Positions 6,631 to 54,916 of a DNA stretch of 64,000 nt are shown here, piece after piece. Within the stretch, counting starts at the first letter, position 1. Each line of letters starts with the position of its first letter. A model generated the notes under the pieces. The model did not search any database. It was not told the origin of the DNA and worked only from the letters and a program-made list of their open reading frames with translations. A program made the translations under genes and the position numbers. Origin of the DNA: Gemmatimonadales bacterium (GTDB lineage: Bacteria > Gemmatimonadota > Gemmatimonadetes > Gemmatimonadales > GWC2-71-9); assembly GCA_050733355.1 (NCBI GenBank), contig JBOHSY010000473.1, positions 1,095-65,094 on the forward strand. Direction: 5' to 3'.

Positions 6631-9411
6631 ATGAAGCTCGTCCGTGCGGTTCGTTGCCTCGTGTTGCTGGCCGCGGCCTGGCTCCTGCCCGGGTCGCTCG
6701 GCGCGCAGGATGCGCCGGCCGGCCGCGTCGTCGGGCGCGTCGTGGATGCCGGTCAAGGATCCCCGATCGCGGGCGCACAGATCCAGGTCACGGGAACCGA
6801 GCTCCGCGCGACCAGTGCGGTGGACGGCCGCTTCTCGATTGCGAACATTCCCGCTGGGCCCGTGAGCCTCACGGCGCGCATGATCGGATTCCAGCCGAAG
6901 ACCGTCACCGGGCTCGAGGTGCCGGCCGGCGACGCCGTCGAGCAGAACGTGGCCTTGAGCTCGCGGGTGGTCGAGCTCGCCGAGATCACCGTTTCGGCCG
7001 AGGCGGAGCGCGGCAGCGTCGCCCGTGCTCTCGATGAGCAGCGCAATGCGGTGGACATCGTGAACTCCGTATCGCGGGAGCAGATCGCCAAGAGCCCCGA
7101 TAGCGACGCCGCGGCTGCGATCCAGCGGGTGAGCGGGGTGACCGTGCAGGACGGGAGATACGTCGCCGTCCGTGGCCTGGGTGATCGGTACACCCAGGCA
7201 TCGTTGAACGGCGCGCGGATCCCCAGCCCCGAGCCGGAGAAGAAGGTGGTGCCGCTCGATCTGTTTCCGGCTTCCCTCATCGAGGCGATCACCACATCCA
7301 AGACGTACACGGTCGACCGGCCGGGCGACTACAGCGGCGCCGAGGTGAACATCAGGACCCGCGAGTTTCCGACCCGGCGTACGCTGACGATGACCGTCGG
7401 CTCCGGATTCAACACGCGTTCGACCGGCACCCAGAGCAACTTTGCGCCCGCTACGGGGACCGACTGGCTCGCGTTCGGCTCCAACCGGCGTGAGCTCCCC
7501 ACCCCCATCGCAGCCAACCCGACACTCGCGGGGGTGAACCACCCACAGGCCATTAACGATGTGGTGAACTCATTGCGCAACGTCTGGTCGGCCCGCCAGC
7601 GCGACGGCTCGCCGAGCGGCTCGTTCGGCCTGTCGGTGGGCGGCAGCGATCGCGTGTTCGGCAAGGAGCTCGGGTACCTGCTGTCGGGATCGTATTCCTA
7701 CGCGCAGGAAGTGAAGTCCGATCAGGTGCGCGCGCTCGCGCTCGCCGGTGCGGGCGGCGCGCCCACCGAGATCGACCGATACGAGGGGGAGACGGGCCGG
7801 GCGACCGTTCTCTGGGGCGGGCTGGCGAACTTCACCACGACGCTCGGCAGCCACACCAAGCTCTCGTTCAACAACACCTACAGCCGGACGATGGACAACG
7901 ACGGGCGCCTCGAGTTTACGCCCCGAAGCGAGAATCTCGGCATCCCGCTGCAGATTCAGCGGCTCCGTTATGTCGAGCGGAACGTGCTGTCGAGCCGGCT
8001 CTCCGCGCTGCATCAGCTCGCTCGCCGCCACCAGGTCGAATGGGCGGCCGGCTACTCGGATGTGGCGCGGAAGGAGCCGGACCGCTCGGAGATCGTGTAC
8101 ACCGCCCAGCTCGACGCGAACGGCTCGCCGGTCGGCACGCGGTGGCTCGGGATCAGCAACGAGGCCGCGGTCCGCACGTTCGCGGATCTCGACGAGAACG
8201 CGCTGGACGGGCAGCTCAGCTACCAGCTCCTGCTCGGCTCGCTCGACAACCCCTGGGCCCTGAAGGTCGGCGGTTACTACCGCTCGGTGGAGCGCGACGC
8301 GGACAACACCTACTACAGCATCAGCCTGGCCGGCTCGCTGCCGGAGACGGCGCTCCAGCTGCCGCCGGAGCAGATCTTCGACGGACGTTTCTCCACCGGC
8401 ACCACGACGGCGTTCCGGGTCGCGGCCCTGGGCCAGGGAGGCTCGTACGCCGCGGAGGACCGGTTGACCGCGAGCTTCGCCCAGCTCTCGATTCCGCTCG
8501 GCAGCCGTTTCGACGTCACCGCCGGCGCACGGTACGAGCACTCGGACGTGACGGTGAACGCGGTCTCGACCACGGGCGTCCCGACGGTCACGGCTCCCGG
8601 GTACGACGACATCCTGCCGTCGCTGCTGCTGACCTACCGGCTGTCGGAGTCGCAGAATCTCCGGCTGGGCCTGTCGAGAACCCTCAGCCGGCCCGAGTAC
8701 CGCGAGCTGGCGCCCCTGCTGTTCCGCGAGGTGATCGGGTTCGACAACGTGATCGGCAATCCCAACCTCCAGCGCGCCCGCATCGACAACGTCGACTTGC
8801 GGTGGGAGTGGTATCCGACCGGCGCCGAAATCGTGAGCGTGAGCCTGTTTGCCAAGCGGTTCGACGATCCGATCGAACGGGTGTACCTCGCTACGTCCGG
8901 CACACGCATCATCAGCTACGTGAACGCGCAGGCTGCGAACAACTACGGCATCGAGCTGGAGTTCAGAAAGAATCTCGGCACGTTCCGCAACTCTCTGACT
9001 CCGTTCACGCTCTTCGCCAACACGACGCTGATGCGGAGTGAGATCGACATCGCGAACAGCTCCGCTTCGATCACGAATCCCGAGCGTCGCATGGTGGGCC
9101 AGGCGCCCTACGTGGTGAACGCCGGGCTGACCTACACGTCGGGCAGCGGCGCGTGGAGCGCAACCACACTCTACAACGTCACGGGGCCGCGCATTACCGA
9201 AGCGGGGGAGATTCCGCTTCCGGACGTCGAGGAGCGGCCGCGCCACGTCATGGACTTCTCGCTCCGGTTCCCCGTGTTCCCCGGGCTCTCGGGTCGCCTG
9301 GACGCGAAGAACCTCTTCGACTCGCCGTACAAGCTCGTGCAGGGACCGGTCGAGCGCGAGACGTACCAGCTGGGCCGCACCTTCGGGATCGGGTTCTCGT
9401 GGCAGCCCTGA
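6631..9411 (+). CDS. TonB-dependent receptor with N-terminal carboxypeptidase-regulatory-like domain
   Basis: Signal peptide MKLVRAVRCLVLLAAAWLLPGSLGAQD from ATG 6631, plug-like region (VQDGRYVAVRGLGDRY), ~900-aa barrel ending ...GIGFSWQP. Confidence 0.85.
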   Translation: MKLVRAVRCLVLLAAAWLLPGSLGAQDAPAGRVVGRVVDAGQGSPIAGAQIQVTGTELRATSAVDGRFSIANIPAGPVSLTARMIGFQPKTVTGLEVPAGDAVEQNVALSSRVVELAEITVSAEAERGSVARALDEQRNAVDIVNSVSREQIAKSPDSDAAAAIQRVSGVTVQDGRYVAVRGLGDRYTQASLNGARIPSPEPEKKVVPLDLFPASLIEAITTSKTYTVDRPGDYSGAEVNIRTREFPTRRTLTMTVGSGFNTRSTGTQSNFAPATGTDWLAFGSNRRELPTPIAANPTLAGVNHPQAINDVVNSLRNVWSARQRDGSPSGSFGLSVGGSDRVFGKELGYLLSGSYSYAQEVKSDQVRALALAGAGGAPTEIDRYEGETGRATVLWGGLANFTTTLGSHTKLSFNNTYSRTMDNDGRLEFTPRSENLGIPLQIQRLRYVERNVLSSRLSALHQLARRHQVEWAAGYSDVARKEPDRSEIVYTAQLDANGSPVGTRWLGISNEAAVRTFADLDENALDGQLSYQLLLGSLDNPWALKVGGYYRSVERDADNTYYSISLAGSLPETALQLPPEQIFDGRFSTGTTTAFRVAALGQGGSYAAEDRLTASFAQLSIPLGSRFDVTAGARYEHSDVTVNAVSTTGVPTVTAPGYDDILPSLLLTYRLSESQNLRLGLSRTLSRPEYRELAPLLFREVIGFDNVIGNPNLQRARIDNVDLRWEWYPTGAEIVSVSLFAKRFDDPIERVYLATSGTRIISYVNAQAANNYGIELEFRKNLGTFRNSLTPFTLFANTTLMRSEIDIANSSASITNPERRMVGQAPYVVNAGLTYTSGSGAWSATTLYNVTGPRITEAGEIPLPDVEERPRHVMDFSLRFPVFPGLSGRLDAKNLFDSPYKLVQGPVERETYQLGRTFGIGFSWQP

Positions 9412-9544
9412 GGCGCGCCAGGGCCGCGTGACAGAGCTGTGACGGCGGCGTGGCCGCCGGGTGACGGCCTGCTGCTTGGATAGCAGCGCGCCTGGTTCAG
9501 GCGGGCGGATCGACGACTTCCTTCTCCCACACTTGGGTAGGTGA

Positions 9545-11230
9545 ATGAATCGACTTCTTCGTGCTGTTTGCGGATCCGGCGTCCTGGCGATGGCCGGCCT
9601 GTTCGTTGGGTGCGGCGGGGATGACACGACCGGACCGGGCGTGGTGAATCCCCCGTCCAGCGTCACCGCGCAGGCGAGTACCGCCACCTCGGCGGACGTC
9701 ACGTTCACGCCGGTGATCGGCGCGACCAGCTACGTGGTCGAGCGGGCGCCGGGCGCCTCGGGCGGGACGTTCGAGGAGGTCGGCACGCCGTCGACGTCGC
9801 CATTTACCGACCCAGGCCTCGAGCCCAACACGACCTATCGCTACCGGGTCGCCACCGTGTCCGGCAGCACGACCAGCGCATTCTCCAGCGAAGCGCAGGT
9901 CACCACGCTGGCCCCCGGTCGCCAGGTCGTGAATGTCACAGCAGACATCACGACCAACACCACGTGGGTCGTCGACAACGTCTATCGGCTGCAGGGCTTC
10001 CGGAAGGTGACGTCGGGCGCCACGCTGACCATTCAGCCGGGCACGCGGATCGAGGGTGACTTCAACACCATCGGTTCGTCACTCTTCGTGCTGCGCGGCG
10101 CGCGGATCCAGGCCATCGGCACGGCGGCGAACCCGATCGTGTTCACCTCGTCGCAGACGGCGGGCACCCGTCAGCCGGGTGACTGGGGCGGGCTCATCAT
10201 CGTCGGCAACGGGGCGATCAACCGGGCCGATCCGACCACCCTCGAGGGCACCGGCACCAACGCCGACAACCCGCTGATCAACTACGCCGGCGGGAACAAC
10301 AACGCCGACAACAGCGGTGAGCTGCGCTACGTGCGGGTGGAGTTCGCCGGATTCGCACCTGCCGAGAATGCGGAGCTCAACTCGTTCACGTTCGCCGCGG
10401 TCGGCAGCGGGACCGCTTTGAATTACCTCCAGTCGCTCGCGGGCCTCGACGACTCGTTCGAGTGGTTCGGAGGCGCCGCTGATGGGAAGTACTTCGTCTC
10501 GTACGAGTCCGGCGACGACCACTTCGATATGTCGGAGGGCTACTCGGGGCGGCTCCAGTATCTCGTCGCGCTTCAGACCAGGATCCTCCAGACGCGGCCC
10601 GAGGCCGGCGGCGTGTCGTCGGATCCGCAGGGCATCGAGAACGATGGCTGCGCCGGCACGGGCTGCGCGAACGGCGAGGATTCCCAGCCCTTCACGATTC
10701 CCGTGGTAGCCAACTTCACGCTCATCGGGACCCCCGCCGGCGTGACGATCCCGTCGGGCGGCGGCCGCGGTTTGGTGCTGCGCCGGGGCACGGGCGGCTT
10801 CTATGTGAACGGGCTGATCGGCCGCTGGCCGACCGCGGGCTATAGCGTCCGGACCGCCGCCACGACCGGAGCGCGGCAGGCCGCCGGTCTGCTCGATCTG
10901 GACAACCTGCTGGTGGTCGAGACCCCCGCGCTGACCGATGCGGCAAGCGACGTCGCAGTCGACGCCGGCGCGAACGCCATCGAGTATCAAGCCGCCACCA
11001 CAGCCGCGAGCATCCTCACCGCGCTGCCCACTGATCCAGCCGATGGGGCTGCGCTGGACTGGACGCCTACGGCCGGATCGGCGGCGGCATCCGGCGGACT
11101 GGCGACGTTCACCGGGGAGCTGGCTACCCGAGCCGGCTCGGTCGTGGTCGGGACGGCGTTCCGCGGCGCGGCGCATCCGAGCGGCGCCGACAAGTGGTGG
11201 CAGACCTGGACGAACTACGCAGACAACTGA
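9545..11230 (+). CDS. Lipoprotein with fibronectin-III-like domain and beta-helix-like region, partner of the upstream TonB-dependent receptor
   Basis: Lipobox LFVGC. FN3-like segment (TFTPVIGATSYVVERAP...YRYRV). Function unknown. Confidence 0.7.
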   Translation: MNRLLRAVCGSGVLAMAGLFVGCGGDDTTGPGVVNPPSSVTAQASTATSADVTFTPVIGATSYVVERAPGASGGTFEEVGTPSTSPFTDPGLEPNTTYRYRVATVSGSTTSAFSSEAQVTTLAPGRQVVNVTADITTNTTWVVDNVYRLQGFRKVTSGATLTIQPGTRIEGDFNTIGSSLFVLRGARIQAIGTAANPIVFTSSQTAGTRQPGDWGGLIIVGNGAINRADPTTLEGTGTNADNPLINYAGGNNNADNSGELRYVRVEFAGFAPAENAELNSFTFAAVGSGTALNYLQSLAGLDDSFEWFGGAADGKYFVSYESGDDHFDMSEGYSGRLQYLVALQTRILQTRPEAGGVSSDPQGIENDGCAGTGCANGEDSQPFTIPVVANFTLIGTPAGVTIPSGGGRGLVLRRGTGGFYVNGLIGRWPTAGYSVRTAATTGARQAAGLLDLDNLLVVETPALTDAASDVAVDAGANAIEYQAATTAASILTALPTDPADGAALDWTPTAGSAAASGGLATFTGELATRAGSVVVGTAFRGAAHPSGADKWWQTWTNYADN

Positions 11231-27948: not shown

Positions 27949-29778
27949 CTACTCCACCGTCACCGACTTGGCCAGATTTCGGGGCTGATCCACGTTGCAC
28001 CCCCGCCGCACCGCGACGTAGTACGCCAACAGTTGCAGCGGGATACTGGTGAGAATCGGGGTCAGGAGGTCCAGCGTCTCCGGAATTTCGAAGGTCGCGT
28101 CCGCCAGCCGCTCGATCTCGCCATCACCGGTATTGACCAGCGCAATAACCTTGCCACCCCGCGCCTTCACCTCTTCGATGTTCGACACGATCTTGGGGTG
28201 CACCGCGTCGCGTGGCGCGATGAACACCACCGGCATGTTCTCGTCGATCAGGGCGATCGGGCCGTGCTTCATTTCGGCCGCGGGGTAGCCCTCGGCGTGG
28301 ATGTACGAAATCTCCTTCAACTTCAACGCGCCCTCGAGGGCGACCGGAAAATTCACCCCGCGGCCCAGGTAGAGCGCGTTGTGCGTGGTGCCGAGGAACC
28401 GCTCGGCGAGCCGCTCGATCTCCTCGGATCGCTGAAGGATGGCCGCCATCTGATCGGGCAGGCACCTGAGCGCCTGGATGATCTGTCGGCCCTGCAGGAT
28501 GCTCAGGTTCCGCAGCCGGGCGATGCGCAACGCGATCAGCGAAAGCGCCGCCACCTGGCTCGTGAACGCCTTGGTGCTGGCGACGCCCACCTCGGGACCG
28601 GCATGCAGGTAGATGCCGCCGTCTACTTCGCGCGCGATCGTCGAGCCTACCACGTTCACCACGCCGACGGTGCGGGCGCCGCGCTGCTTGGCCTCGCGGA
28701 TGGCCGCGAGCGTGTCGGCGGTCTCGCCGGACTGCGACACGCCGATCACGAGCGTGTGCTCGTCCACGACCGGGTTGCGATACCGGAACTCGGAGGCGTA
28801 TTCGACCTCCACCGGAATCCGGGCCATCTCCTCGAGCATGTACTCGCCGATGAGTCCCGCATGCCAGGACGTCCCGCACGCCGTGATGACGATGCGGTGC
28901 ACCTTGGCGAGCTGCTCGTCGGAGAGGTTGAGGCCGGTCACCCGAGCGGTGCCCTCGTCCTCGAGCAGGTGGCCGCGGAGCGTGTTCCGCAGGCTCTCCG
29001 GCTGCTCGCGGATCTCCTTGAGCATGAAGTGCGGATAGCCGCCCCGTTCGATCGTGGCGAGGTCCCATTCGATCTGCGCGATGGGCTTGCTGATCCGCGC
29101 CGTGTCCAGCGTGCGTACCCGGTACCCCTCGCGGCTGAGCACCGCCATCTCGCCGTCGTCGAGATAGATCACCGAGCGGGTGTACTGGAGCAGCGGCGAG
29201 GCGTCCGACGCCACGAACCACTCGTTCTCGCCGACGCCCACCAGGAGGGGTGACCCCTTGCGCGCCGCCACCAGCACGTTCGGCTCGTCGGCCGAGATGA
29301 ACGCGAGACCGTAGGCCCCCTCCACGTCGCGCAAGGCGAGCGCCACGGCCTCCTCGAGGTTGCCGCGGTAGAACTCGCCTACCAGGTGGGCGAGCACCTC
29401 GGTGTCGGTCTCCGAGCGGAAGGTATGGCCGCGCTGGAGCAGCGCCTTCCGGATCGACGCGGCGTTCTCGATGATGCCGTTGTGGATGACCGCGATCCGG
29501 CCTGACTGGTCGGTGTGCGGATGCGCGTTGGGTGTGGTCGGGGCGCCGTGCGTGGCCCAGCGGGTGTGCCCGATGCCGAGCGTGCCCCCGGGGAGGTTGC
29601 CGTCGAGCTGCTGCTCGAGCGCCGACAGCTTGCCGGCGGCCTTATGGATCTTGAGGCCGGCACCGTTGACCACCGCGATTCCCGCGGAGTCGTAGCCGCG
29701 ATACTCGAGGCGCCGAAGTCCGTCGATGAGCAGGTTCGCCGCGGGACGGGGACCGATGTATCCGACAATGCCACACAT
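27949..29778 (-). CDS. glmS: Glutamine--fructose-6-phosphate aminotransferase
   Basis: Start ATG 29778 (MCGIVGYIG, catalytic Cys2), two SIS domains, C-terminal ...NLAKSVTVE. 609 aa. Confidence 0.95.
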   Translation of the reverse strand: MCGIVGYIGPRPAANLLIDGLRRLEYRGYDSAGIAVVNGAGLKIHKAAGKLSALEQQLDGNLPGGTLGIGHTRWATHGAPTTPNAHPHTDQSGRIAVIHNGIIENAASIRKALLQRGHTFRSETDTEVLAHLVGEFYRGNLEEAVALALRDVEGAYGLAFISADEPNVLVAARKGSPLLVGVGENEWFVASDASPLLQYTRSVIYLDDGEMAVLSREGYRVRTLDTARISKPIAQIEWDLATIERGGYPHFMLKEIREQPESLRNTLRGHLLEDEGTARVTGLNLSDEQLAKVHRIVITACGTSWHAGLIGEYMLEEMARIPVEVEYASEFRYRNPVVDEHTLVIGVSQSGETADTLAAIREAKQRGARTVGVVNVVGSTIAREVDGGIYLHAGPEVGVASTKAFTSQVAALSLIALRIARLRNLSILQGRQIIQALRCLPDQMAAILQRSEEIERLAERFLGTTHNALYLGRGVNFPVALEGALKLKEISYIHAEGYPAAEMKHGPIALIDENMPVVFIAPRDAVHPKIVSNIEEVKARGGKVIALVNTGDGEIERLADATFEIPETLDLLTPILTSIPLQLLAYYVAVRRGCNVDQPRNLAKSVTVE

Positions 29779-34663: not shown

Positions 34664-35947
34664 ATGCTGGTCGTCGGGAGCGGAGGGCGGGAGCACGCGC
34701 TCTGCCACGCCCTCCGCCGCGAGAATCCCGACGCCGCGATCCACTGCGCTCCCGGCAATCCCGGCATCGGCGCACTCGCCCACACACTCGCCATCCCACC
34801 CGACGACATCGACCGCATCACCGATGCGGCCGACATGCTGGGCATCGACCTGGTGGTGATCGGGCCGGAGGCGCCGCTGGCCGCCGGCCTCGCCGACCGG
34901 TTGCGGGCCGAGGGCCGCGCGGTCGTAGGACCGAATGCCGCGGCGGCGCAGCTCGAGGCGTCGAAGGCGTTCGCCAAGGAGGTCATGACCGCCGCCGGGG
35001 TGCCCACGGCCGCGAGCGCCACGTTCACGGACCTGCGCGCGGCGCTGGCCTACGTCGCCGCGCACGCCGAGCCGCTCGTGGTGAAGGCGTCCGGGCTCGC
35101 CGCGGGCAAAGGCGCGATCGTCTGCGCCACCCGCGGCGACGCCACCGCGGCGGTACGCGCGATGCTGGGTGAGGGCAGGTTCGGCGACGCCGGGCGGGTA
35201 GTGGTCATCGAAGCATTCCTCGCGGGGGAGGAGCTCTCGGTACTCGCGCTGACCAACGGCGAGGAGATCGAGCTCCTGCCCGCGGCGCAGGATCACAAGC
35301 GGCTGCTGGAGGGCGACCACGGGCCGAACACGGGCGGCATGGGCGCGTACAGCCCCGTCACCCTTGCTACCCCCGAGCTGCTGGACCGCGCCAGGCGCGA
35401 GGTGTGCCTCCCGGTGCTCGGGGAACTGCGCCGGCGTGACCTCCCGTTTTCGGGCGTGCTGTACGCCGGGCTGATGGTGGATCCCGCCGGCAACCTCTCG
35501 GTGGTCGAGTTCAACTGCCGGCTCGGTGACCCCGAGTCCCAGGCGGTGCTGCCGCTCGTGAAGGCGGGACTCACCGACGCGTTCTGGCGGATCGCCCACG
35601 GCGACGCGCCGTCCCGCCTTCGCATCGCCGGAGGCGCGGCGGTCACCACCGTGCTTGCGGCGCGCGGGTATCCGGACCAGCCGGAGAAGGGCGCCGCCAT
35701 TCGCATCCCGCCCGATCTCCCGGCCGGCGTCGCGGTGTACCACGCCGGCACCGCCCGCGACGGCCAGGGTACGCTCCGCGTCGCCGGAGGCCGGGTACTC
35801 GCGGTGACGGCGGCGGCCGCGACGTTCGTCGAGGCGCAGGCTCTGAGCCGCGAAGCGGCCGAGCGGATTGCGTTCGAGGGCAAGCAGTTCCGGCGTGACA
35901 TCGGCTGGCGCGAGGCGCAGCGCACGGAGACCGCGGAGCGCCGCTGA
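34664..35947 (+). CDS. purD: Phosphoribosylamine--glycine ligase
   Basis: Start ATG 34664 (MLVVGSGGREHAL). ATP-grasp motifs; GPNTGGMGAYSP. Confidence 0.95.
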   Translation: MLVVGSGGREHALCHALRRENPDAAIHCAPGNPGIGALAHTLAIPPDDIDRITDAADMLGIDLVVIGPEAPLAAGLADRLRAEGRAVVGPNAAAAQLEASKAFAKEVMTAAGVPTAASATFTDLRAALAYVAAHAEPLVVKASGLAAGKGAIVCATRGDATAAVRAMLGEGRFGDAGRVVVIEAFLAGEELSVLALTNGEEIELLPAAQDHKRLLEGDHGPNTGGMGAYSPVTLATPELLDRARREVCLPVLGELRRRDLPFSGVLYAGLMVDPAGNLSVVEFNCRLGDPESQAVLPLVKAGLTDAFWRIAHGDAPSRLRIAGGAAVTTVLAARGYPDQPEKGAAIRIPPDLPAGVAVYHAGTARDGQGTLRVAGGRVLAVTAAAATFVEAQALSREAAERIAFEGKQFRRDIGWREAQRTETAERR

Positions 35948-35991: not shown

Positions 35992-37395
35992 ATGCTGGAT
36001 ACGGGCCGCCGCACGGCGCTGCTGATGGTGGGAGCACTCGCCGGGCTGCCACCGGATGCGTCGGCGCAGCAGCCCGTCCTCCCTCCCCGTCCCCCGTTCC
36101 ACGCGCTTCCATCCGACGACGACTGGAGCGCCCTGCGCGATCCGCGACTCCGCACCGAGTGGTGGGACCGCCTCAAGTACGTGCCGCTCGCAGGCTCGGG
36201 CCGGGTCTGGCTCAGCCTGGGCGGCGACGCGCGGGTGCGCTACGAAGCCTTCCGCAACCCGCTGTTCGGGGCGGACCCACCCGACCGCGGAGGATACCTG
36301 CTCCAGCGGTACCGGCTCCACGCCGACTTCCGGATCGGGGGCCGGGTCCGCACGTACCTGGAGGTCCAGAGCGCGCTCGAGTCCGGACGCACCGGCGGAC
36401 CGCGGGCGCTGGACGAGAACCAGCTGGATCTCCATCAGGCATTCGTCGACGTGGCGCTCGATCGCGACGCCGACGTCGTGGTCCGTCTGGGACGGCACGA
36501 GCTCGAGTTCGGCTCCTCCCGCCTCGTGTCCGCGCGCGAGATGGTCAACGTCCGGCAGAGCTTTTGGGGCGCTCGCGTGCTCGCGCGGGGCACGACCTGG
36601 CGCGGGTCGGCCTGGCTCGTGCGGCCGCTGACCATCGAGCGTGGCGCACTCGACGACTCGCCCGACCCGGCACGCACGCTGTGGGGACTGTCGTGGGTCC
36701 GTAACGGGCCGGCCGGAGCGCACGCGGCGCTCTATTACGTCGGGCTCGAGCGGACGGACGCCAGGTTCGACCAGGGAACCGCGGACGAGTTGCGGCACAT
36801 AGTGGGTGCCCGGATATGGGGGCGGCGCGGCGCCTGGGACTTCAACGTCGAGGCCGGCGTTCAGGCTGGCCGGTTCGGCGCGGGGCGGATCCGCGCCTGG
36901 GATGCCGCGACGGACAATGGGCTCACGCTGGAGCAGCTCCCGCTCGCCCCGCGGATCGGGCTCCGGGCCGATGCGACCAGCGGCGATCGGGATCCGGGAA
37001 ATCCCGACCTCGAGACGTTCAACCCGCTCTTTCCGAACACCGCCTACTCCGGGCTGTCGGGACTCGTCGGTCCCGCCAACTCGCTCGACCTGGTGCCATC
37101 CGTGAGGCTCTCACTTGCCCCGAGGCTGGCCTTGACCGGCGGGCTCGCGTTCTTCTGGCGCACCAGCGTCCGGGACGGGCTGTACGGCATTACGGTTGTG
37201 CCGGTGCGCACCGGGGGCGGGAGCCGGGCCCGTTTCGTCGGACGCCAGACCACGCTCGAGCTCGTCTGGCGTCCGGACCATCACCTGACGTACTCGGCCA
37301 CGCTCACCGCGTTCGCCACCGGCCGGTATCTGCGCGAGACGCCGCCCGGCGAGAGCGTCCGCTATGTCCAGAGCTGGGTGAGCTACCGATTCTGA
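35992..37395 (+). CDS. Outer-membrane porin, alginate-export (AlgE-like) family
   Basis: Signal-like N-terminus ending ASAQQ. Long alternating beta-strand sequence ending ...SWVSYRF. Family call is from sequence resemblance only. Confidence 0.7.
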   Translation: MLDTGRRTALLMVGALAGLPPDASAQQPVLPPRPPFHALPSDDDWSALRDPRLRTEWWDRLKYVPLAGSGRVWLSLGGDARVRYEAFRNPLFGADPPDRGGYLLQRYRLHADFRIGGRVRTYLEVQSALESGRTGGPRALDENQLDLHQAFVDVALDRDADVVVRLGRHELEFGSSRLVSAREMVNVRQSFWGARVLARGTTWRGSAWLVRPLTIERGALDDSPDPARTLWGLSWVRNGPAGAHAALYYVGLERTDARFDQGTADELRHIVGARIWGRRGAWDFNVEAGVQAGRFGAGRIRAWDAATDNGLTLEQLPLAPRIGLRADATSGDRDPGNPDLETFNPLFPNTAYSGLSGLVGPANSLDLVPSVRLSLAPRLALTGGLAFFWRTSVRDGLYGITVVPVRTGGGSRARFVGRQTTLELVWRPDHHLTYSATLTAFATGRYLRETPPGESVRYVQSWVSYRF

Positions 37396-37443: not shown

Positions 37444-43812
<6,369 letters not shown>

Positions 43813-43814
43813 CG

Positions 43815-43877
43815 ACTCCCAACGGGATCCCACGCCGGCTATGAAACTCCCAATACATTGGGAATGAGTTTGGGAAT
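43815..43877. promoter_or_regulatory. Candidate upstream activator sequences (four ACTCCCAA / TTGGGAAT half-sites)
   Basis: actcccaac (43815-43823). Near-perfect palindrome actcccaat-ac-attgggaat (43846-43865). tttgggaat (43869-43877). Located ~85-150 nt upstream of the -24 element. Confidence 0.4.
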
Positions 43878-43921
43878 CGGCTGTTTACCTCTCGAGTTGC
43901 CCCGGTAGCAAACCACTCTCG

Positions 43922-43933
43922 ATCAACTACTTA
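43922..43933 (+). promoter_or_regulatory. IHF-like site
   Basis: ATCAActacTTA matches the ATCAANNNNTTR core, in the AT-richer stretch between the half-sites and the -24/-12 element. Confidence 0.3.
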
Positions 43934-43961
43934 CACTACCACAGCGCGGGTCAGCGGCAAC

Positions 43962-43977
43962 TGGCATGCGGACTGCT
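43962..43977 (+). promoter_or_regulatory. Sigma54 (-24/-12) promoter
   Basis: cTGGCATgcggaCTGCTt versus consensus TGGCAC-N5-TTGCW. GG (43963-64) and GC (43975-76) are separated by exactly 10 nt. GGGAG RBS at 44002-44006 and ATG at 44010 follow. Confidence 0.6.
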
Positions 43978-44009
43978 TTTCCTTGGCGCCGAAACCACGG
44001 ACGGGAGTC

Positions 44010-44276
44010 ATGCTCAGACTGACCCGGCTCGCTGTCGAGCCCGCACTCATCCGACTCAAAGTCGAGGGCGCCGTGACCCGGAGGTCGGCGGCGGTGCTGG
44101 AACAGGAACTGGCCGACGCCCTGAGTGGCGCGTCCCGGATCCAGCTCGACTTCCAGGGCGTGTCCTACATCGACGGTTCCGGCGTGGAGGTGCTCCGCCG
44201 TCTCCCGCCGCACCGAATCGAGATCGTGAACTGCACCCCCCTCATCGGGCAGTTGCTGAGCAAGGAGCTCGCATGA
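44010..44276 (+). CDS. STAS-domain protein (anti-sigma-factor-antagonist-like)
   Basis: 88 aa from ATG 44010 (RBS gggag 3 nt upstream; TTG 43983 alternative). ...IQLDFQGVSYIDGSGVEVL... resembles the SpoIIAA/RsbV core. Stop overlaps the next ATG (ATGA). Confidence 0.75.
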   Translation: MLRLTRLAVEPALIRLKVEGAVTRRSAAVLEQELADALSGASRIQLDFQGVSYIDGSGVEVLRRLPPHRIEIVNCTPLIGQLLSKELA

Positions 44277-44854
44277 CGCCCTTCACATCGGACGACCGGG
44301 CGCACGAATTCGAGGAGCTGCTTCGCCCCGTCCTGGACGCCGCCTACCGTGCGGCCTACTACCTGTCGCGCAACCGGTCCGACGCCGACGACCTCGTCCA
44401 GGAGGCGGCGCTCCTGGCCTGGCGCAGCTTCGACAGCTTCGAGCGGGGGACGAACTTCCGAGCCTGGTTCCACCGCATCCTGACCAACGTCTTCCTGACC
44501 CGCTGTCGCAGCGCGCGGCGCCACCCCACGGTGCCGCTCGACGCCGACGCCGACGACGGCAGCGACCGGACGCTCGCGGATGCGCGCGGGGCGACCGGCA
44601 GCGCCGATCCGGCGTCGGCGATCCTCTCCGGGCTTGCCCTCGAGGACGTCAGGGCCGCGCTCGAATCGCTGCCGGTCGAATACCGTACGGTGGCCGTGCT
44701 GTACTTCGTCGACGACCTCTCCTACGAACAGATTGCCACGGCGCTGGATTGCCCGGTGGGAACCGTGCGCTCCCGGCTTCACCGCGGCCGGCGCATGCTC
44801 TGGCAGCGCCTGCGGGACACTGCGAAGGACTTCGGGATCCGCGCCGCCGGGTGA
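44273..44854 (+). CDS. ECF-type RNA polymerase sigma factor
   Basis: Region 2 DADDLVQEAALLAWRSFDSF...FRAWFHRILTN. Region 4 LPVEYRTVAVLYFVDDLSYEQIATALDCPVGTVRSRLHRGR. Confidence 0.9.
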   Translation: MTPFTSDDRAHEFEELLRPVLDAAYRAAYYLSRNRSDADDLVQEAALLAWRSFDSFERGTNFRAWFHRILTNVFLTRCRSARRHPTVPLDADADDGSDRTLADARGATGSADPASAILSGLALEDVRAALESLPVEYRTVAVLYFVDDLSYEQIATALDCPVGTVRSRLHRGRRMLWQRLRDTAKDFGIRAAG

Positions 44855-44928: not shown

Positions 44929-45194
44929 TCTCACGGGCAGTTCCTCTGCGCCCGTGAGGCAGTGCCCGAGTTCCAGCGCCGCGGCGTCCGCCCCGAGGTA
45001 TCCTGCGCGGCCGGCAAGATCGTCTGGGTGAGCTCGGTGCACGAGGTGATCGTGGCAAGCGCATCGGCGAGCCGGAGGATATCGGCCGGGCGGTCGTATG
45101 GATGGCGTCCGACGAGTCCGATTACGTGACCGGAGCCAGTCTCTACGTGGACGGCGGGATGACGCTCTACCCCGGCTTCGCCACCGGGGGCTGA
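44929..45194 (+). pseudogene. Relic of a glucose-1-dehydrogenase-like short-chain dehydrogenase (N-terminally truncated, internally deleted, frame-shifted)
   Basis: Frame 1: [13 protein letters not shown]...[13 protein letters not shown] (~44935-45055). Frame 0: [47 protein letters not shown] (45063-45194). No Rossmann TGxxxGxG part, no start codon, and the ~75 aa between the two pieces (including the catalytic YxxxK) are missing. Confidence 0.6.
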
Positions 45195-54263: not shown

Positions 54264-54316
54264 AGGCGCTCAATGTACCCCGTGCTCGGACCGCTCCGCA
54301 AGCGTCAGGGACGGCA

Positions 54317-54916
54317 GTGCGTAGGCCCGAGCTGGCCGACCGGACCGATCAGGAAATCGTCGCCCTCGCGCGGGGCGGCGTGGAGGCGGCGTATCGCGAG
54401 CTGGTGCGGCGTTACGAGCGACCGCTCTTCTCGCTGCTCTACCGGATGGTGCGCGACCGCGAGCTGGCGGAGGATCTTGCCCAGGAGACGTTCGTCAAGG
54501 CGCTGAACGCGATCGAGTCGTACCGCCCGGAGTACAAGTTTTCGTCCTGGATCTTCAAGATCGCCAACAACGCCGCGATCGATCACCTGCGCCGGCGCGA
54601 GCTGGACACGCTGTCGCTCGAGGGATCGCCGCACGCCGAGACGCCGGAAGCGATCGAGGCCACGGCGCTTCAGATCGGCGATCGCCAGGAGTCGCCGCTC
54701 GACGAGGTCGCGGCGCGCGAGCTGGGCGGCGAGATCGAGGCGGCGATCGCGAAGCTCAGGCCGGAGTATCGCTCGTGCATCCTGCTCCGCCACGTCGAGG
54801 GTCGCGCCTACGAGGAGATCGCCGAGATCCTGGGGCTTCCGCTGGGCACTGTCAAGACCTACATCCATCGCGCACGCAACGAGTTGCGGCGTGAGCTGGC
54901 GCACCTCCGGCCATGA
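54317..54916 (+). CDS. ECF-type RNA polymerase sigma factor (RpoE-like)
   Basis: Region 2 ELAEDLAQETFVKA...FSSWIFKIANN. Region 4 EYRSCILLRHVEGRAYEEIAEILGLPLGTVKTYIHRAR. GTG start. Confidence 0.9.
   Translation: MRRPELADRTDQEIVALARGGVEAAYRELVRRYERPLFSLLYRMVRDRELAEDLAQETFVKALNAIESYRPEYKFSSWIFKIANNAAIDHLRRRELDTLSLEGSPHAETPEAIEATALQIGDRQESPLDEVAARELGGEIEAAIAKLRPEYRSCILLRHVEGRAYEEIAEILGLPLGTVKTYIHRARNELRRELAHLRP

Follow-up and report, generated by a model that had tools for sequence, protein, structure and literature searches.

A predicted enhancer-dependent sigma-54 promoter region between a giant activator gene and a STAS-ECF operon in Gemmatimonadales

Introduction

The genes of extracytoplasmic function (ECF) sigma factors can themselves be placed under sigma-54. 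An established case is hrpL, an ECF sigma factor gene with a sigma-54 promoter, an upstream activating sequence (UAS) for a bacterial enhancer-binding protein (bEBP), and an intervening site for integration host factor (IHF) (PMC5263251; PMC8103513). The P2 promoter of rpoE in E. coli is sigma-54-dependent as well, and is activated by QseF, an NtrC-family bEBP and two-component response regulator (PMC8103513). Multiple enhancer sites are known from norVW, where several inverted-repeat sites for the GAF-containing bEBP NorR lie upstream of a sigma-54 promoter and all three are needed (PMC2831303). In this work, we have analysed a 64,000-nt stretch of DNA (hereafter the window) from a Gemmatimonadales bacterium (assembly GCA_050733355.1, contig JBOHSY010000473.1, positions 1,095 to 65,094, forward strand), in which the gene of a giant bEBP is followed by the genes of a STAS-domain protein and an ECF sigma factor. 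Our subject is the spacer between them, positions 43813-44009.

We read this spacer as the enhancer-dependent sigma-54 promoter region of the two-gene STAS-ECF operon, and give this reading a probability of roughly 70%. It is carried by the elements themselves, the clustering statistics of the half-sites, the conservation of the elements together with their fixed geometry, the linkage of the genes in two different layouts, and the motifs of the activator.

Elements of the predicted control region

The spacer holds a patch of half-sites directly behind the activator gene and a -24/-12 element ahead of the STAS gene:

43815-43822 and 43846-43853: half-sites ACTCCCAA, by sequence match
43858-43865 and 43870-43877: half-sites TTGGGAAT, by sequence match
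43846-43865: central near-palindrome ACTCCCAAT-AC-ATTGGGAAT
43847-43864, no strand assigned: putative core enhancer (UAS) palindrome CTCCCA-ATACAT-TGGGAA, formed by the two inner half-sites, conserved
43815-43822, minus strand: distal extra half-site (TTGGGAGT on this strand), 3 nt past the activator stop codon
43870-43877, plus strand: proximal extra half-site, a direct repeat of 43858-43865 at 12-nt spacing
43962-43977, plus strand: predicted sigma-54 -24/-12 element TGGCAT-GCGGA-CTGCT, TGGCATGCGGACTGCT, with GG at 43963-64 and GC at 43975-76, conserved
43986-43990, plus strand: predicted transcription start, placed by standard sigma-54 geometry about 12 nt after the -12 C

The half-sites are strongly clustered. 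In the window, whose G+C content is 70%, TTGGGART occurs only four times on both strands together, and all four copies fall within a 63-nt patch (43815-43877). The expected number in shuffled sequence is 0.8, and none of 100 shuffles reached four. The centre of the core palindrome is ~107 nt upstream of the -24 GG, that is, at roughly -131 relative to the predicted start, and the outer half-sites make a second inverted repeat around it (43815-43822 with 43870-43879). The four half-sites and the near-palindrome of the original prediction are all present, except that the outer copy begins at 43870 and had been placed one base early, at 43869.

The -24/-12 element is less conspicuous by numbers. 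Its GG and GC are exactly 10 nt apart in a sequence that resembles the consensus TGGCAC-N5-TTGCW, and it is located 34 nt before the STAS ATG, with a predicted 5' untranslated region of ~22 nt. The pattern TGGCA-N7-TGC has 3 matches in the window against 1.56 expected, which is not significant alone, and in a crude weighted consensus scan the element ties for the best score in the window. The significance of the element comes from its conservation in relatives, not from window statistics. The other two exact matches, at 28141-28156 and 34692-34707 (both on the minus strand), were rejected as sigma-54 promoters, as one lies in a coding open reading frame (ORF) and the other faces a convergent gene, whose end it meets.

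Conservation in related loci

We have collected the orthologous loci by three routes. A genome-collection scan with the whole activator gave mostly generic bEBPs via the MAYDWPGN pattern, and only two of its loci, L001 and L002, are orthologous. Exact-protein look-ups gave L081-L089 and L092-L096, and a metagenome scan with a STAS alignment of five sequences (A2) gave L090 and L091; the alignment of ten sequences (A1) is too divergent for scanning. The sigma-54 search pattern is a general consensus that was not derived from these loci. The motif TTCCCA-N6-TGGGAA was derived in this work.

The -24/-12 pattern is found exactly once in each of the 15 loci that have a STAS gene, 46-67 nt before the STAS ATG, while the same pattern elsewhere in these loci has a frequency of only 0.027 per kb per strand. 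Positions that the pattern does not force also agree with the consensus: the base before the GG is a T in 13 of the 15 loci, and 12-13 of them have a T-run behind the -12 GC. The GG-N10-GC that had been predicted at 43962-43977 is present, and all 15 loci have such an element at the equivalent place.

The palindrome TTCCCA-N6-TGGGAA is present in 11 orthologous loci, and its arms (positions 2-6 and 13-17) are invariant. In 10 loci its centre lies 99-110 nt upstream of the -24 GG. In the 1.33 Mb of fetched loci, the relaxed form TYCCCA-N6-TGGGAR is confined to these spacers, apart from one stray match. We thus have an inverted repeat within 80-150 nt upstream of the -24/-12 element, conserved in both sequence and distance, as is typical of a UAS. 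Overall, the check proposed with the original prediction, conservation of the half-sites and of GG-N10-GC in orthologous loci, has turned out in its favour, with the promoter element in 15/15 loci and the palindrome at a set distance in 10. The half-site array as a whole has stood only in part: the central palindrome is conserved, but the extra half-sites vary in number and position.

A MAFFT alignment of seven spacers (A3) shows the same pattern. The mean column identity is 61%, and 23 of the 34 invariant positions are located in two islands, one being the palindrome with the adjacent TGGGA and the other the -24/-12 element. As far as can be read from sequence, the pattern is the phylogenetic footprint of two putative protein-binding sites at fixed spacing, which has survived reorientation of the activator and its target. 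The sole other conserved spot in the spacer is an invariant AA in (C/T)AA(A/G), ~55 nt upstream of the -24 (A3 columns 108-110, window ~43908-43912).

The alignment also bears on the idea that the TGGGAAT repeats are the -35 of an ECF autoregulatory promoter, or that a sigma-70-type promoter drives the operon, with GG-N10-GC being incidental. ECF -35 motifs do resemble GGAAT or GGAAC, and the -24/-12 pattern by itself, as said above, does not exceed chance in the window. Moreover, most ECF operons are autoregulated (PMC8103513). However, the motifs here form an inverted repeat with invariant arms, A3 has no conserved -10-like block 16-17 nt downstream of them, and GG-N10-GC occurs in all 15 loci at a set distance from the ATG. 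In addition, neither a sigma-70-like promoter nor an intrinsic terminator was called in 43400-44500. An ECF-type promoter with TGGGAAT as its -35 was rejected on account of the missing -10 block, and we take the idea as a whole to be very improbable.

The gene order gives a second line of evidence for the sigma-54 reading. A full-length activator orthologue (53-79% identity) is present in 12 of the 15 STAS loci, and the order bEBP-STAS-ECF is kept in L001, L081-L085, L089, and L092-L096. In L087 and L088, where the activator is 67% and 62% identical, the STAS-ECF pair is located upstream of the activator in divergent orientation, and the promoter and the TCCCA/TGGGA sites are both found in the shared divergent spacer. 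In L086 the STAS gene has been lost and the ECF gene stands alone on the divergent side, with a sigma-54 element directly before it. The genes outside the trio differ between loci, so that the trio is the conserved unit. These layouts agree with the prediction that the STAS-ECF operon is the target, since the trio stays linked even when divergent, and the regulatory elements move with the STAS-ECF pair.

The divergent layouts also help to judge whether the inverted repeats could act as RNA, be it as a structured leader or as a terminator or attenuator hairpin at the end of the transcript of the activator. The nested repeats indeed begin only 3 nt past the stop codon. On the other hand, the fold of 43805-43895 does not surpass that of shuffled sequences (z = -0.04), and there is no T-run, no terminator call and no Rfam match. 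Sequence conservation of the arms comes without compensatory changes, which is the signature of a protein site, and in the divergent layouts the sites are kept upstream of the promoter and not at the 3' end of any transcript. An RNA-level role was rejected on the shuffle-like folding and the lack of an Rfam match, and of all alternatives it is the one we find hardest to believe.

Some more distant loci were observed in addition. In L010 (Candidatus Polarisedimenticolia, Acidobacteriota; 6885-10034), GGCATGCTCCTTGCT comes after the gene of a shorter bEBP of 910 aa, and its end is 12 nt from the start codon of a STAS homologue, a 95-aa ORF from 9747 that is 36% identical to the STAS protein of the window. 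From this arrangement, the link of bEBP, sigma-54 promoter and STAS therefore appears to reach beyond Gemmatimonadota. L007 and L008 have, at ~9400-9450, a related near-perfect palindrome behind the gene of a Gemmatimonadota bEBP of 610 aa (CTCCAATATACTGGAG in L007, CTCCAATATATTGGAG in L008). Behind the palindrome lie the gene of an ECF homologue (39-40% identity) and, further downstream, that of a STAS homologue; the canonical GG-N10-GC was not seen there. Finally, L088 has a second sigma-54-like element (TGGTATTCTTGATGCT, 10469-10484) just downstream of the activator in its divergent layout, ahead of a gene of the beta-lactamase family whose ATG is 17 nt away. It has no TCCCA/TGGGA palindrome and may be a chance match.

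The activator

The protein encoded upstream of the control region is unusually long:

37444-43812, plus strand: giant bEBP, 2122 aa, by Pfam domains and motifs, with the stop codon TGA at 43810-43812

From N- to C-terminus, its Pfam domains are Pkinase-like, AAA_16 (a STAND NTPase), two GAF, PAS, Sigma54_activat, AAA_lid_14, and HTH_8, the last being a Fis-type helix-turn-helix (HTH). The E-values are 3.6e-36 for Pkinase, 4.1e-43 for AAA_16, 4.6e-74 for Sigma54_activat and 1.5e-07 for HTH_8, and GAF and PAS_3 are matched as well. In the AAA+ module, GAFTGA is found at residue 1888, along with the Walker B motif LFLDEI and a Walker-A-like GATGTGKE (GTGK). With these motifs intact, the module therefore looks competent for sigma-54 contact and ATP hydrolysis, as judged from sequence. 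The claim that a bEBP is encoded next to the control region is thus well supported by GAFTGA, Walker B, the GTGK motif and HTH_8.

The same protein, identical in sequence, is annotated in a Gemmatimonadales metagenome-assembled genome (MAG). Homologous bEBPs number in the thousands, the closest ones coming from Gemmatimonadales MAGs; the nearest homologues all have the same domain set, and full-length relatives show 52-79% identity. In NCBIfam, the C-terminal 340 residues including the HTH match FhlA best (1.3e-121, model positions 349-687 of 692), with 407 bits against an equivalog cut-off of 830. The HTH segment GWRVSGPxGAAxxLGLKPTTLEARMKKLG is near-invariant among the orthologues, in parallel with the invariant half-site. 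We infer that the palindrome is the putative binding site of the adjacent activator, recognised via this HTH.

Several points weigh against the reading of the spacer as the sigma-54 control region of the operon. The 15 loci share descent, and 15/15 should not be taken as 15 independent events, though two gene layouts are represented. No rpoN gene was found by an RpoN-box regular expression in the window or in the 1.33 Mb of fetched loci, though the intact GAFTGA bEBP and its thousands of homologues indirectly support the presence of sigma-54 in the genome. The site architecture is loose, as the outer half-sites vary in number and position among genomes: in close relatives, an additional TGGGA stands 3 nt ahead of the core palindrome and a distal TCCCA is found at 10-21 nt, while in the window the distal copy is 31 nt upstream and the downstream copy at 43870-43877 is specific to its genome; the distal TCCCA of the orthologues is likewise at variable distance. 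Moreover, one palindrome arm in L084 and L085 is TGTGAA. No terminator was called after the activator gene within 43400-44500, and read-through could also express the operon. Lastly, an identical or near-identical HTH is found in 1820-aa paralogues (P0021; P0020-P0023).

The last point gives some ground to the view that the sigma-54 promoter is real but the palindrome is bound by another regulator. This could be a paralogous bEBP that shares the HTH, or a repressor or activator of unrelated type, and the giant protein would then be a mere neighbour. A paralogous bEBP that reads the palindrome is the most serious rival. Against it, the activator gene and the site have stayed adjacent through a tandem-to-divergent rearrangement and over 53-79% identity, the distance from palindrome to promoter is fixed at ~106-110 nt, as is typical of an enhancer, and the gene tables show no further conserved regulator gene in the neighbourhood. 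We therefore consider binding by another regulator unlikely, and keep the adjacent activator as the candidate for the palindrome.

Two further features of the protein were noticed. Its kinase-like domain (residues 1-270, window 37444-38250) retains the VAIK lysine (as VVIK), DFG and SPE, but lacks the glycine-rich loop (IYRGRRRVVFRG) and has HKDVNPNN in place of the catalytic loop HRDxKxxN. The domain is possibly that of a pseudokinase, or else of an atypical kinase. In the clade with 52-53% identity (L089 at ~10355-10385, and the equivalent positions of L093 and L094), the distal half-site TCCCAAT lies within the final codons of the activator, which read AAG TCC CAA TCG TCG TGA (KSQSS*). The C-terminal tail SQSS is conserved in P0024, P0026, P0035 and P0047, and may be under constraint at the DNA level because the distal half-site overlaps these last codons.

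The STAS-ECF operon

The predicted promoter faces two genes:

44010-44276, plus strand: STAS-domain protein, 88 aa (Pfam STAS_2, 1e-09), first gene of the operon
44273-44854, plus strand: ECF sigma factor, 193 aa (Pfam Sigma70_r2 and r4_2), with its ATG overlapping the STAS stop codon (ATGA)

The STAS start codon at 44010 is fixed by the MLRLT N-terminus, which is shared by 10 aligned STAS homologues. At the position that is phosphorylated in SpoIIAA and RsbV, these ten proteins have G, A, W, R or P, and no Ser is conserved. In addition, no gene for an RsbW/SpoIIAB-type (HATPase_c) anti-sigma kinase or a PP2C phosphatase was found in the operon or its relatives. Judged by the Ser position and the kinase gene, the operon is not a partner-switching module of the SpoIIAA/RsbV kind.

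The 4-nt overlap of the STAS and ECF genes is kept in 9 of the 10 orthologous loci with called genes for both, and suggests translational coupling. Among the best 25 of its 85 NCBIfam matches, the ECF protein scores above the cut-off only for the generic sigma70-ECF model; the SigH-, SigE- and SigW-like models are the top ones but stay below their own cut-offs. Its region 2 carries the canonical acidic DADDLVQE. It would be speculative to let the kinase-like domain of the activator act on the STAS or ECF protein post-translationally. A canonical acidic region 2 argues against phosphorylation dependence of an ECF sigma factor, and DADDLVQE therefore speaks against such an action.

A candidate for a small soluble HxxxCxxC (ZAS) anti-sigma factor follows the ECF gene in some relatives (L084 11466-11738; L094 11467-11715). 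No ZAS anti-sigma gene was found after the ECF gene in the window or in its closest relatives.

The spacer between the two sites

Between the half-sites and the -24/-12 element, the DNA is richer in AT:

43900-43945, no strand assigned: AT-richer spacer with an IHF-like core ATCAACTACTTA (43922-43933), a possible but weak bend or architectural-protein site

The IHF site of the original prediction has survived only in a reduced form. Its core GATCAACTACTTA does match the consensus WATCAANNNNTTR at 8 of 9 positions, a score reached by only 2.6% of shuffled 95-mers. Consensus scoring over the 15 spacers gave at least 8/9 in 3 of them only and 7/9 in three more, which is weak enrichment; in the window, L001 and L090 the match (7-8 of 9) is at the shared position 41. 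We have therefore downgraded the site to an AT-rich bendable spacer. What is conserved is the AT-rich dip itself: when the 95 nt ahead of TGGCA are divided into bins of 19 nt, the G+C fraction falls to 0.21-0.58 in the third and fourth bin of every locus. It may or may not bind a protein of the IHF/HU type. The proposed Shine-Dalgarno sequence, GGGAG, is present ahead of the ATG at 44010, as had been stated. It ends only 2 nt from this ATG and is absent from the orthologues.

Neighbouring genes

A decayed gene for a short-chain dehydrogenase (SDR) lies between the ECF and DUF1622 genes of the window (44935-45191). Of the intact homologue in L082, no more than residues 138-176 and 242-286 can be recognised in it, at 87-96% identity, and a fragment of this gene, 81 aa long, occurs in L081. 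A second ECF gene, 28% identical to the first, is located 10 kb downstream (54266-54916) and is followed by two ORFs without Pfam match. Directly upstream of the activator stands a gene of the Alginate_exp outer-membrane type (35992-37395), which comes after a likely purD ORF. In close relatives (L081 12180-13811; L082 from 12812), purD directly precedes the activator, and the Alginate_exp/DUF1622 gene is downstream of the ECF operon. DUF1622 and cupredoxin genes recur near the operon.

Proposed mechanism and significance

The working of the region can be sketched from these elements, with activator-palindrome binding, the start site, looping, the sensed signals, and the roles of the STAS protein and the ECF regulon all being proposed here. 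Sigma-54 RNA polymerase would sit on TGGCAT-N5-CTGCT (43962-43977) as a closed complex. Dimers of the 2122-aa activator would occupy CTCCCA-N6-TGGGAA (43847-43864) and the flanking half-sites through the Fis-type HTH. The N-terminal sensor modules (kinase-like, STAND, GAF and PAS) would then release the AAA+ domain for ring assembly on the enhancer, and the activator would reach the polymerase by looping over ~100 nt of AT-richer DNA and spend ATP to open the promoter near 43988. The transcript would give the STAS protein and, by translational coupling, the ECF sigma factor. The latter would take RNA polymerase on to further genes as a second tier, which makes up a sigma-54 to ECF cascade.

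If this holds, Gemmatimonadota would have a concrete, conserved and testable regulatory module consisting of an enhancer motif, a sigma-54 promoter, a putative cognate activator, and a STAS and ECF output. To our knowledge, there are almost no experimental data on gene regulation in this phylum. The class of giant kinase-like/STAND bEBPs is widespread and, according to our literature searches, unstudied; it is now linked to a predicted target, so that reporter assays in a heterologous host could be used to study it. The module would extend a sigma-54 to ECF cascade of the hrpL/rpoE P2 type to a distant phylum, and leaves the understanding of sigma-54 control itself unchanged.

A bolder possibility is that the giant sensor-bEBP, in which a degenerate Hanks-type kinase, a STAND NTPase, GAF and PAS are fused to a sigma-54 activator, is a dedicated ECF master switch in Gemmatimonadota and some Acidobacteriota, with the non-phosphorylatable STAS protein as a new kind of ECF partner, so that bEBP, STAS and ECF make up an undescribed three-part module. 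The partner might bind the sigma factor directly, or antagonise a ZAS anti-sigma factor independently of any kinase. We find this idea rather doubtful. In full-text literature searches, neither a fusion of Pkinase with a bEBP nor a pairing of STAS with ECF was found described.

Comparison with known systems

The hrpL system of Pseudomonas syringae, Erwinia and Pantoea, activated by HrpR/HrpS or HrpS, is similar in layout, since there too a sigma-54 promoter with an upstream bEBP site leads to an ECF gene. The hrpL activators are small and have no known sensor domain, whereas the activator here is a protein of 2122 aa that carries kinase-like, STAND, GAF and PAS modules. The ECF factor is also different, being matched best by the SigH, SigE and SigW models with no HrpL among the best 25 of 85 NCBIfam matches. 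Furthermore, a translationally coupled STAS gene precedes the ECF gene here, the phylum is Gemmatimonadota, and the IHF element is not clearly conserved. The operon is thus analogous to the HrpL wiring, and we see no evidence that its ECF factor is a member of the HrpL group (ECF32).

E. coli rpoE P2 shares with our locus an ECF sigma gene under a bEBP-activated sigma-54 promoter. The qseF gene is not adjacent to rpoE, and rpoE has several other promoters. Here, by contrast, the activator is adjacent to its predicted target, and no other promoter was detected in 43400-44500.

Activators of the FhlA type, which serve the hyc and hyp operons, have an enhancer ~100 nt upstream with a bend between. 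They resemble the present one in having GAF upstream of AAA+ and in the C-terminal module, which is most similar to FhlA. However, the score is far below the equivalog cut-off, the N-terminus here is ~1300 residues longer, and the target genes are unrelated. NorR likewise combines multiple enhancer sites with a GAF-containing bEBP, but its motif is different, and the extra half-sites of our locus are not conserved in position.

In SpoIIAA/RsbV partner switching, a single-domain STAS protein is encoded beside a sigma factor gene, as it is here. Our operon differs in that the phosphorylatable Ser is not conserved, no Ser kinase or PP2C gene is adjacent, and the sigma factor is of the ECF rather than the group-3 type.

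Overall, sigma-54 control of an ECF gene is already known (hrpL, PMC5263251; rpoE P2, PMC8103513), and the wiring of our locus is of a known kind. It is set apart by the great size of its sensor with kinase-like, STAND, GAF and PAS modules, by the presence of a STAS partner, and by the phylum in which they are found.

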